Part shown: piece after piece, positions 3,826 through 5,988 of the stretch | How positions within the stretch are numbered: position 1 is the first letter of the stretch | Layout: every line of letters begins with the position of its first letter | Virus record (IMG/VR): IMGVR_UViG_2690316166_000010 | Length of the DNA stretch: 7,009 nucleotides | Origin: a virus | Lineage: Duplodnaviria; Heunggongvirae; Uroviricota; Caudoviricetes | Direction: 5' to 3' (one strand) | Translations under genes and position numbers: made by a program | Notes under the pieces: generated by a model | Databases searched by the model: none | Told to the model about the DNA's origin: nothing | What the model saw: only the letters and a program-made list of their open reading frames with translations

Positions 3826-4137
3826 TTAGCCGGGCTGTGTGCCAGTCTTGCGGGATTTTTGAGAAGACGATGTGTTTTCTGGCCCATCAGGGGAGAGAGA
3901 AGGACTGATCTGCCCAGCAGCCTCATTTGTTTCGTTACTCATCAACCACGTAGTGTATTTTTTAAATTCCGGGTGCATTGTGATTTTCAGTAAAACCTCC
4001 GTTCCCACACCTCGAATACCAGTCTCGTATTGCTTAACCGTACCAACCGCAATACCTATTGAATCCGCGAACTTTGCCTGACTAAGCCCCTCAGATTCTC
4101 GAATTGCTTTTAGCTTCTTTGATATCTCTATTGACAT
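3826..4137 (-). CDS. C: P2 C-like immunity repressor (103 aa, helix-turn-helix)
   Basis: ATG at complement of 4135..4137, preceded by AGGTG (complement of 4144..4148). Product MSIEISKKLKAIRESEGLSQAKFADSIGIAVGTVKQYETGIRGVGTEVLLKITMHPEFKKYTTWLMSNETNEAAGQISPSLSPDGPENTSSSQKSRKTGTQPG resembles the P2 C repressor as I recall it (FTKYTLWFMTNQ...GQIAP...SGQKTG) in length and motifs. Position between int and a divergent cox-like gene fits. The six-frame ORF start at 4239 is an upstream extension. Confidence 0.8.
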   Translation of the reverse strand: MSIEISKKLKAIRESEGLSQAKFADSIGIAVGTVKQYETGIRGVGTEVLLKITMHPEFKKYTTWLMSNETNEAAGQISPSLSPDGPENTSSSQKSRKTGTQPG

Positions 4138-4232
4138 GGTGTGCACCTGAATACTATATTGGTTATCAGTTGAGTACCACTTGACGCTACAAAGAGCCAC
4201 AAATAGCACCAGATTGAATAGGTTATCACACC
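4138..4232. promoter_or_regulatory. Divergent switch region between the repressor and cox-like genes (candidate Pc/Pe promoters and operators)
   Basis: 95-bp intergenic region between divergently oriented repressor (start 4137, -) and cox-like gene (start 4233, +). Contains direct repeats TATTGGTTATCAG (4157..4169) and AATAGGTTATCAC (4217..4229) sharing the 8-mer GGTTATCA. TTGACG -35-like hexamer at 4181..4186 (+). TATAGT -10-like hexamer on the minus strand (complement of 4153..4158). Hexamer assignments are tentative. Confidence 0.55.
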
Positions 4233-4511
4233 ATGGCAAAAGTCCTTAACACATACGAACAAGCGGATTTTGAGCGTTTGGCGGCGTTCTACCCATACCG
4301 TAATGAACATGGGCTACCGGTACTTGAAGAAAGCCTAGAGGATTATGCGAAACGCACAAATCAAAGCATTCTCGCTGTAAGAAGGCAGGCTGATAGATCG
4401 GTAATTCCCGTTACTCAAGAAGGAAGAAACACAAAACGCAAAGTAAATCTCTTCGCAATTTTCCTGAAAACCATCAGAAACGCAGAGAAATACGTGCAGA
4501 TGACAAAATAA
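4233..4511 (+). CDS. cox: Cox/Apl-like excisionase and transcriptional regulator (92 aa)
   Basis: First gene of the rightward operon, divergent from the repressor as in P2 and 186. Product MAKVLNTYEQADFERLAAFYPYRNEHGLPVLEESLEDYAKRTNQSILAVRRQADRSVIPVTQEG... The segment YAKRTNQSILAVRRQADRSVIPV resembles the DNA-binding region of P2 Cox as I recall it (FAKLIGKSTGAVRRMIDKGKLPVI). Confidence 0.6.
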   Translation: MAKVLNTYEQADFERLAAFYPYRNEHGLPVLEESLEDYAKRTNQSILAVRRQADRSVIPVTQEGRNTKRKVNLFAIFLKTIRNAEKYVQMTK

Positions 4512-4525
4512 CGAGGTGTCATTTT

Positions 4526-5036
4526 ATGCTGAAGCAACGCCGTAATTTTTGTACCGGAACAGAACGCCACGCTAACCGTTTCACTACCAGTGCATCACGC
4601 AGCAACATCCGCTACAGCCTGAGTGATACACACGCAACGCCGGATGGCTACCCAGTAAAACAAATCGGCGAGCACGCCTGGCTGATTGAGAAAGCTGGAA
4701 TCGTGATCCACAAATGCCCACGCAATCCGTTTACCGGAAACCGCATTTTTGCACTGAGCTGTGGCGACAATCAGTTCGGGCAGGATTTCACATTATACGA
4801 AGCACTTCGCACGGTTGATCGTCTGCTTCGCGGGCAAAGTTTTATTAAACAGGCTGATNNNNNNNNNNNNNNNNNNNNNNNNNNNNNNNNNNNNNNNNNN
4901 NNNNNNNNNNNNNNNNNNNNNNNNNNNNNNNNNNNNNNNNNNNNNNNNNNNNNNNNNNNNNNNNNNNNNNNNNNNNCTTCGCACGGTTGATCGTCTGCTT
5001 CGCGGGCAAAGTTTTATTAAACAGGCTGATTTATAA
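4526..5036 (+). CDS. Hypothetical early-operon protein, interrupted by N-run 4859..4976; about 112 aa if the flanking 54-bp repeat is a gap artefact
   Basis: ATG 4526 preceded by GAGGTG about 8 nt upstream. Frame open to the N-run: MLKQRRNFCTGTERHANRFTTSASRSNIRYSLSDTHATPDGYPVKQIGEHAWLIEKAGIVIHKCPRNPFTGNRIFALSCGDNQFGQDFTLYEALRTVDRLLRGQSFIKQAD. The same final 18 codons recur after the gap, followed by L and stop TAA (5034..5036). Several Cys/His residues; no family recognised. Confidence 0.5.
4805..5030. repeat. Perfect 54-bp direct repeat flanking the 118-nt N-run
   Basis: 4805..4858 (CTTCGCACGGTTGATCGTCTGCTTCGCGGGCAAAGTTTTATTAAACAGGCTGAT) is identical to 4977..5030. The N-run lies exactly between the two copies. 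Confidence 0.9.
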
Positions 5037-5345: not shown

Positions 5346-5588
5346 ATGGGCAAAGAATATAAAACTCTCATTAACAAAGCACTTGAGCGTTTTTATTTTC
5401 GCTTAAGTGCATCAGGCGCTCATGCTGAACGTGCGGCCCGTGACTCATTGACCAGAGCAATCCGAAGTCTGTATGACGTGGCTTTTTACGCTGATGATCT
5501 GGATGCACTTAACGAACTTTCCGAGCTGATCTGTGCCGCAGAATGCGGGGAACATATTGAACCGTATAAGCTGGGAAATATCGCATGA
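5346..5588 (+). CDS. Hypothetical early-operon protein (80 aa; alternative GTG start at 5343)
   Basis: ATG 5346 with AGGG 7 nt upstream; stop TGA 5586..5588. Product MGKEYKTLINKALERFYFRLSASGAHAERAARDSLTRAIRSLYDVAFYADDLDALNELSELICAAECGEHIEPYKLGNIA. Same strand and close spacing as neighbouring genes. Confidence 0.55.
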   Translation: MGKEYKTLINKALERFYFRLSASGAHAERAARDSLTRAIRSLYDVAFYADDLDALNELSELICAAECGEHIEPYKLGNIA

Positions 5589-5698
5589 GTATATTTATTT
5601 CATGGCTTGTTCTGATTATTTCGGTGGTCTGCGCCATTGGGATTATGCGAATTATTAATTCAGTAAAAAAGATTGAACGCTTTTTCACTGAAGAATAA
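5585..5698 (+). CDS. Small hydrophobic single-pass membrane peptide (37 aa), absent from the supplied ORF track
   Basis: ATG 5585..5587 overlaps the upstream stop TGA 5586..5588 (ATGA coupling). Product MSIFISWLVLIISVVCAIGIMRIINSVKKIERFFTEE, stop TAA 5696..5698. One hydrophobic helix followed by a charged tail. Confidence 0.45.
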   Translation: MSIFISWLVLIISVVCAIGIMRIINSVKKIERFFTEE

Positions 5699-5784
5699 CC
5701 GCGCAAATAAGACCCCAGGTTAAATAAGAAAATGTGAAAACAATCCGCATTCGCGGAGGTATTCGCACACGCCAAGGAGGCGTA

Positions 5785-5988
5785 ATGGCAATTAAGCATT
5801 TTCCTGTCGTTCGTTTCACCTCCAGAGGACGTGAATACGAAGTTGACGAACGCCTGATTACCACAATCGACAAACACCGTTCAGAAAAGGATGCACATCA
5901 TATCTATCTCACTGACGGCACTTACTTCTGCGCCACCAACGTGGTGCAGGTGAATCTTATCAGACAGGTACAGGAGTCACGCAGATGA
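5785..5988 (+). CDS. Hypothetical early-operon protein (67 aa)
   Basis: Strong Shine-Dalgarno AAGGAGG (5774..5780) with 4-nt spacer before ATG 5785. Product MAIKHFPVVRFTSRGREYEVDERLITTIDKHRSEKDAHHIYLTDGTYFCATNVVQVNLIRQVQESRR. Stop TGA 5986..5988 overlaps the next start (ATGA). The six-frame ORF start at 5734 (GTG) is an upstream extension. Confidence 0.65.
   Translation: MAIKHFPVVRFTSRGREYEVDERLITTIDKHRSEKDAHHIYLTDGTYFCATNVVQVNLIRQVQESRR

Follow-up and report, generated by a model that had tools for sequence, protein, structure and literature searches.

The 37-codon reading frame at positions 5585 to 5698 (+) of the analyzed DNA is, on comparative evidence, a genuine protein-coding gene, and its product (MSIFISWLVLIISVVCAIGIMRIINSVKKIERFFTEE) is predicted to be a single-pass inner-membrane microprotein, encoded directly behind and overlapping with a DUF4754 gene in the early operon of a P88-like prophage. 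The analysis covered one strand of 7,009 nucleotides from the virus record IMGVR_UViG_2690316166_000010, referred to here in its full length as the window. That the frame encodes a real, translated membrane microprotein appears highly probable to us. The best explanation overall combines this microprotein with a mode of action by binding to another protein, and we favor it with moderate confidence; the binding-partner mechanism taken on its own is a tentative proposal that we hold with less than even confidence.

The window begins with the Escherichia coli gene btuC (362 to 1342, −) and continues into a prophage. This prophage region is 92 to 96% identical to the genomes of phage P88 and other members of Xuanwuvirus (Peduoviridae, P2 family) and 99.9% identical to prophages of several complete E. 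coli genomes. The small ORF thus belongs to a prophage of the P88 type (Xuanwuvirus, P2 family) that has inserted next to btuC. An integrase gene (−) and a C-like HTH repressor gene (3826 to 4137, −) are followed by a Pe-like early promoter (TTGACA-18-TATATT, 11/12; 4131 to 4160, +), a cox-like gene (4233 to 4511, +), DUF4761, the gene of a phrog_3800 protein, DUF4754 and the small ORF. Behind the small ORF, the plus strand encodes a phrog_3459 protein and then a winged-helix protein, and a replication endonuclease gene lies at a greater distance. The Pe-like site was recognized by its match to the consensus only, but its placement with respect to the C repressor and cox genes equals that of the annotated Pe in P2, and it would drive the operon of the ORF. 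All plus-strand genes from the cox-like gene to the replication endonuclease gene are connected by short or overlapping junctions, and around the ORF we found neither a promoter of its own above background nor a plus-strand terminator. The ORF shares strand and unit with the genes from cox to A and lies downstream of a Pe-like promoter that faces the C repressor, as is typical of an early lytic operon gene in the P2 family. The early-operon setting proposed in the initial annotation therefore holds, because the layout is syntenic with the annotated switch and early operon of P2.

Two other parts of the window deserve mention. Within the DUF4761 gene, a run of 118 N (4859 to 4976) lies between the exact copies of a direct duplication of about 54 nt (cttcgcacggttgatcgtctgcttcgcgggcaaagttttattaaacaggctgat; region 4806 to 5030), and at this run the window exceeds strain M10, from which it hardly differs otherwise, by 172 nt. 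The N run together with the duplication looks like a scaffold-gap or masking artefact, which also creates two spurious terminator-like matches at 4821 and 4993. Between btuC and the integrase gene, a 184-aa ORF (1535 to 2089, −) encodes a protein with a long coiled coil and, at its C-terminus, a hydrophobic segment. Matches were obtained to phrog_9415 (E=6.5e-15) and, weakly and through the coiled coil, to CCDC90-like, ZorA and LmuB models. Possibly this ORF is cargo carried at the end of the prophage, a place where other strains have different genes.

According to the sequence and the list of ORFs, the 37-codon frame begins with ATG AGT ATA and ends with GAA GAA TAA, with the start codon at 5585 and the stop codon at 5696 to 5698. 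The ATG shares the tetranucleotide ATGA (5585 to 5588, +) with the TGA of the DUF4754 gene (5586 to 5588), which agrees with the stop-start overlap reported at first and forms a putative site of termination-reinitiation coupling. The overlap is retained even in lineages in which DUF4754 has only 31 to 41% identity. In the lineage of the window, the start codon is preceded by a weak Shine-Dalgarno-like GGGAA (5573 to 5577, +; 8 to 12 nt 5' of the ATG), and its pairing energy of −4.6 kcal/mol is not better than that of shuffled sequences. Divergent lineages have AGGAGG (−10.3 kcal/mol), GGAGG (−9.3 kcal/mol) or GAGGAG (−8.5 kcal/mol) at the same site, 5 to 8 nt 5' of the ATG, and the strengths across these lineages range from −7 to −10.3 kcal/mol. 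Their strong sites are embedded in DUF4754 codons that specify differing amino acids. Because the Shine-Dalgarno element is weak in the lineage of the window, ribosomes that end translation of DUF4754 probably reinitiate at the ATGA, and initiation of the 37-codon ORF in this lineage probably depends on this step. Since reinitiation at the ATGA follows translation of DUF4754, both proteins would be made together.

The length of the ORF alone is not beyond chance, as 78 ORFs in the window reach at least 25 aa. What goes well beyond chance is the comparative evidence, that is, the open frame, its retention and a synonymous excess that is specific to this frame. To avoid selecting on the peptide, we fetched homologous loci via the DUF4754 protein alone, and all 95 loci (80/80 close and 15/15 divergent) showed the ATGA overlap and, starting from it, an ORF whose hydrophobic helix is intact. 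Among 70 distinct 111-nt haplotypes of the ORF, the annotated frame was open in every case, in contrast to 7 and 0 haplotypes for the other two plus-strand frames. For close relatives, pN/pS was 0.31 in frame versus 1.27 and 1.09 in the shifted frames. The comparison of the window with locus L090 resulted in a pS of 0.83 and a pN of 0.23 (Fisher p=1.7e-7), and four further pairs of deep lineages gave p values from 1.6e-6 to 1.3e-3. Over all deep pairs, pS was 0.54 to 0.83 versus a pN of 0.14 to 0.29 in frame 0 only, with no synonymous excess in the shifted frames; synonymous sites are near saturation in these lineages and nonsynonymous change is low. The peptide is 50 to 68% identical in lineages where DUF4754 falls to the low identity given above, with a pN of 0.2 to 0.3 in divergent lineages compared to 0.4 to 0.56 for DUF4754, and it evolves at about half the rate of this neighbor. 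These patterns indicate that the amino-acid sequence of the peptide is under purifying selection.

The same data bear on the reading that the frame is not a gene, either because it arose by chance within a spacer or because the true gene is the antisense 122-aa ORF (5509 to 5877, −). Short ORFs are indeed common in the window and the antisense ORF is the longer of the two, but the best antisense frame is open in just 29 of the 70 haplotypes and spans anything from 28 to 172 codons depending on the context, whereas the sense frame is open in all of them and carries the frame-specific synonymous excess. We consider the chance that this reading is correct to be negligible.

Frameshifts or stops in close homologues had been named initially as the observation that would speak against a coding function. 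Instead, the frame is kept in close and distant homologues, and the sole recurrent frameshift arises at a T5 run (5681 to 5685, +), where deletion of one base leads to a 45-aa variant with only the last 4 residues replaced. This form was present in 7/80 of the close loci selected by DUF4754, and the isolated phages PhiR44_2 and Chuche, in which the match is restricted to residues 1 to 33, are consistent with it. Rarer frameshift forms originate from an A6 run (5665 to 5670, +), one copy of the ORF is interrupted by an IS3 element, and damaged copies of the gene are rare. Judging by these forms, constraint rests on the helix and the KKIERF segment of the peptide, and the extreme C-terminus can be regarded as dispensable, given that the 45-aa variant occurs in viable phages.

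One hydrophobic helix and a charged C-terminal tail, as described in the initial annotation, are both found in the sequence. Hydropathy and AlphaFold2 predict a transmembrane helix SIFISWLVLIISVVCAIGIM for codons 2 to 21 (5588 to 5647, +), and residues 1 to 21 are strongly hydrophobic, with a Kyte-Doolittle mean of 2.6 to 2.8 and a summed value of −2.6 to −3.4 on the Hessa scale. Codons 22 to 37 (5648 to 5695, +) encode the amphipathic tail RIINSVKKIERFFTEE, to which the charged residues are confined (R22, K28, K29, E31, R32, E36 and E37) and which has a hydrophobic moment of 0.80 for residues 23 to 34. In the AlphaFold2 model, residues 2 to 36 form a single unbroken helix with a pLDDT of 94. 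An N-out/C-in topology with a cytoplasmic tail is predicted by the positive-inside rule, because almost no residues precede the helix and R22, K28 and K29 follow it. The product would therefore be a 37-aa inner-membrane microprotein with a single pass, of which only Met-Ser faces the periplasm, and the transmembrane helix of about 20 residues would run on into an amphipathic, Lys/Arg-flanked cytoplasmic tail of about 14 residues. Comparing 49 distinct intact peptides, M1, S6, W7, L10, G19 and I24 were invariant and A17, K28, I30, E31 and F34 nearly so, and 11 positions do not vary between the 37-aa and 41-aa branches of the family. S2, S6, S13 and A17 lie on one face of the helix (100 to 160 degrees) and may represent a small-residue stripe of the type used in helix-helix packing. 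Charged or strongly polar residues that could line a pore are absent from the transmembrane segment.

The upstream partner gene (5346 to 5588, +) encodes an 80-aa protein with a full-length match to Pfam PF15946 (DUF4754, E=2.8e-54), modeled by AlphaFold2 as a soluble two-helix hairpin (pLDDT 89). A fold search of this model against the PDB and BFVD gave no match with E<0.1, and the fold yields no functional lead because a significant structural neighbor is missing in both collections. With the 4-nt ATGA overlap, the peptide and DUF4754 can be described as a fixed two-gene module. The protein database contains "DUF4754" proteins of 103 to 128 aa (P0024, P0027, P0028, P0033, P0039, P0045, P0056 and P0060), which we examined as candidates for natural fusions of both partners and rejected, since a frameshift makes them continue in the third frame across the small ORF (HEYIYLMACSDYFGGLRHWDYANY...). 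These artefacts are mostly singletons from raw-read assemblies, and no natural fusion of DUF4754 with the peptide was found among the DUF4754 proteins in the databases.

Located 46 nt 3' of the stop codon, a conserved hairpin TCCGC-ATTC-GCGGA is followed by GGT (5744 to 5760, +), so that its end reads as a Shine-Dalgarno-like GGAGGU, although a suitably spaced start codon is lacking. The hairpin was also detected in L004, L090, L092, L095 and about 220 other loci. Nearly all lineages preserve the 5-bp stem but differ in the loop (ATTC, ATTA, ACTC, TCAC, ATCT, AACG, ATGC and ACCC). The top pair shows a double change between CG and UA in 8 distinct sequences, and two variants contain G.U pairs, which are valid solely in the RNA of the plus strand. 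Unlike the terminators of P2 and 186 (tR1) at the corresponding position, it lacks a T-run on the plus strand, and an intrinsic terminator of their type was rejected for this direction; the minus strand scores as terminator-like. A repeated operator was rejected, since the palindrome is present only once in the window, and so was a mini-ORF at the hairpin (GTG at 5734, 'IRxxGGI'), as its start is not conserved (GTG, CTG, ATG, GTA or GAG). An Rfam search returned nothing above noise. Our guess is that the hairpin is an mRNA processing or stabilizing element.

The gene 3' of the hairpin differs by lineage, and its start is always found 25 to 32 nt past the hairpin. This slot (5761 to 5785 and the equivalent positions in L004, L007, L090, L092 and L095) is used by at least seven unrelated genes of 67, 71, 87, 92, 97 and 136 to 138 aa, and the 136-aa gene of the UTI89/O157 type has no Pfam match. 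As the next gene varies and yet starts at this constant distance, the hairpin marks the border of an exchangeable slot. A lineage represented by the prophage of E. coli G8 has no hairpin; here, a second hydrophobic ORF of 31 to 34 aa (MKNVKAIHTIATVWVIFQVSALIWLALKIWE) starts 12 nt after the stop of the 41-aa peptide. It was found at 2141 to 2236 of locus L006 (the G8 prophage) and also in L253, L258, L259 and L260, is absent from the RefSeq annotation and is conserved at the protein level in four variants.

With the ATGA coupling upstream and the conserved hairpin with its GGAGGU ahead of a variable gene downstream, one could imagine that only the act of translating 5585 to 5698 matters, for the coupling or for control of the hairpin or the following gene, and that the peptide has no function of its own. 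In that case, a pN far below pS in the peptide frame only, pointing to selection on amino acids, would not be expected, nor would the 11 positions shared between both branches and the slow evolution relative to DUF4754. Moreover, the stop codon is too distant from the hairpin for a terminating ribosome to melt it, and the G8 lineage retains the peptide without the hairpin. A pure leader or spacer ORF is consequently very improbable.

Type I toxins such as Fst/Ldr, Hok and TisB measure about 30 to 50 aa and combine one hydrophobic helix with a short tail of charged residues. The phage peptide resembles them in length, in its single N-terminal helix and in its charged tail, most of all Fst/Ldr, a likeness of size and architecture. 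It could accordingly be asked whether the peptide oligomerizes and depolarizes or permeabilizes the inner membrane, in the manner of these toxins or of a holin-like peptide, leading to host shut-off or abortive killing. The conserved small-residue face could allow self-association, and the terminator-like hairpin on the minus strand could in principle end an antisense RNA. On the other hand, searches of Pfam, NCBIfam and PADLOC gave no match to a toxin family at E<=1 beyond noise, and compared to the loci of Hok/Gef, Ldr/Fst, TisB, Ibs and ShoB the gene lacks a family match, an antisense RNA locus and a stand-alone promoter, being coupled inside an operon. Minus-strand promoter-like sites were not found between 3800 and 6200, the DNA to the right of the hairpin is the variable slot and leaves no room for a conserved antisense promoter or transcript, and the G.U variants of the hairpin pair on the plus strand only. 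The transmembrane segment, with its lack of pore-lining residues, does not fit a channel either, and depolarization early in infection would presumably harm phage replication. A holin or antiholin would be expected in the late lysis cassette beside endolysin and spanin genes; the position of this gene in the early operon, flanked by the cox-like and the replication endonuclease genes, is far from the late lysis genes, and the peptide has no match to a holin in PHROGs or Pfam. Taken together, we regard a membrane-damaging toxin as unlikely.

Superinfection exclusion, in which the peptide would bind an inner-membrane component used by incoming phage DNA and thereby shield the infected or lysogenic cell like T4 Imm or HK97 gp15, is in our view somewhat less likely still. 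The predicted location in the inner membrane would suit such a block of injection, known exclusion proteins are often small membrane proteins, and the family is widespread in E. coli prophages (about 1,330 of 5,426 complete genomes). An exclusion protein of the Imm, SieA/B or gp15 type would be expressed in the lysogen, from a promoter of its own or one on the repressor side; the gene sits on the Pe (lytic) side of the switch, in an early operon that the C repressor should silence in a lysogen. The one internal promoter-like site (5371 to 5399) is weak, scoring 9/12, with site counts below the shuffle expectation. PADLOC gave no match for the peptide, and neither Pfam nor PHROGs related it to an exclusion protein already described. 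The roles in host takeover, exclusion or toxicity put forward in the initial annotation are plausible analogies, and neither homology nor defense-model matches nor the literature favor any one of them.

The nearest parallel in position within the P2 family comes from phage 186, where the genes fil (annotated 'overexpression blocks cell division') and dhr (annotated 'inhibits host DNA replication') are located just before the terminator tR1. Both are small and non-essential and lie, like DUF4754 and the peptide gene, at the end of the first block of the early operon, with an RNA hairpin element following. Sequence similarity is absent, however; Fil (75 aa) and Dhr (66 aa) look like soluble proteins without a transmembrane helix, and tR1 possesses a T-run, which is missing in the hairpin of the window. 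With fil and dhr of 186 at the same operon position, we propose a host-directed role also for the module described here; with low certainty, a non-essential early function that the peptide exerts together with DUF4754 is most likely.

With respect to the mode of action, the peptide resembles bacterial regulatory small membrane proteins such as AcrZ, MgtS, SgrT and CydX in having a single transmembrane helix, a short cytoplasmic extension and a conserved face suited to a larger partner. For conserved hydrophobic microproteins of enterobacteria, binding of neighboring proteins has been proposed (PMC11188072). The phage peptide differs from both groups in being phage-encoded and without homology to them, and its partner is a candidate only. 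Following this line, the early transcript would yield DUF4754 and the peptide together, and the peptide would insert into the inner membrane with its N-terminus out and its C-terminus in. It would then act through binding by its helix or tail and not as an indiscriminate pore, possibly by tethering or partnering the soluble DUF4754 hairpin at the membrane. Alternatively, it might dock onto a host inner-membrane protein via the conserved Ser/Ala/Gly face. With either target, the peptide would act on the host during early lytic growth without being essential. A more far-reaching idea, which we consider rather improbable in its entirety, is that DUF4754 and the microprotein constitute an unrecognized two-component, membrane-acting early module of P88-like phages and that the hairpin with its GGAGGU is a new signal for mRNA processing or stabilization, heading an exchangeable cargo slot. 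If this were true, one version could be that the DUF4754 hairpin is brought to the inner membrane by the peptide so as to inhibit a host process, for instance division, transport, proteolysis or secondary DNA entry.

The description of the ORF as unannotated was correct for the track used in the initial annotation but not for public records, since RefSeq, GenBank and UniRef carry the CDS. The product is listed as the 'hypothetical protein' WP_000021668.1 in RefSeq, as the 'membrane protein' AIZ95115.1 of phage P88 in GenBank and as 'Prophage membrane protein' in UniRef, and the related RefSeq entries WP_000021656.1 and WP_000021655.1 are both termed 'hypothetical protein'. All these records describe the same gene under automatic or descriptive names and without a family model. 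Strain M10 encodes exactly this peptide and P88 a version with 92% identity, and in both the gene follows DUF4754 at the same place and through the same ATGA overlap. As the gene is already part of public annotation and small phage membrane proteins are a familiar class, nothing is overturned by this finding.

Family searches placed the peptide in no Pfam, PHROG, NCBIfam or PADLOC family: PHROGs returned only phrog_5620 (E=0.58), whose function is not known, PADLOC gave 0 families, and a sequence and profile search against the PDB gave noise only. A phmmer search against 1.84 billion cluster representatives recovered only 8 clusters, all of this peptide type, comprising 37-aa forms, 41-aa forms ending in FTGDKRRK, and frameshifted or truncated variants. 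The 41-aa branches are E. coli prophage genes, too, present in 27 and 10 complete genomes. Members have 37 to 41 aa and share the signature M-[SN]-[IV]-[FL]-[ILM]-S-W followed by A17-x-G19 and I-I-x-x-x-K-x-I-E, together with a start that overlaps the DUF4754 stop in ATGA; the peptide of the window shows both features. In the phage collection, the peptide and DUF4754 occurred in exactly the same 14 records, all of them P88-like, and P2 and 186 have neither. The family is narrow, with records from Escherichia as well as Shigella, Salmonella and Citrobacter, and its members are invariably linked to DUF4754. Functional data did not emerge from literature searches on DUF4754, Xuanwuvirus, CP-933T and the sequence and accessions of the peptide.

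Within E. coli the gene is frequent. The 90%-identity cluster of the peptide has 118 member sequences, and its exact sequence is found on at least 1000 contigs. The surrounding 643 nt were detected in 1,396 of 5,426 complete E. coli genomes, in 1,327 of them with a coverage of at least 80%; the carriers, roughly a quarter of the genomes, include O157:H7, the UPEC strain UTI89 and ST131 strains. A gene of this frequency is nevertheless part of no curated family, and no publication on it was found. It offers a clean and well-supported case of a phage microprotein that is conserved and paired with one fixed partner gene, and it is tractable for the study of small membrane proteins in the early development of temperate phages.

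A scan of genome contigs added nothing beyond E. albertii and an assembly labeled 'Vagococcus' that is probably contaminated, and so did not extend the taxonomic reach. The latter (L088, NZ_JBQPOM010000071.1, 'Vagococcus sp. WN89Y') carries a module of the E. coli type on a 226-kb contig, with 92% identity for the peptide and 97% for DUF4754; given the Gram-positive label, assembly contamination or mislabeling is the most likely cause. E. coli LH50-c (NZ_CP100500.1) has two different divergent modules of DUF4754 and a 41-aa peptide at separate chromosomal sites (H124 and H129), which indicates that related prophages with the DUF4754-peptide module can reside in the same cell.
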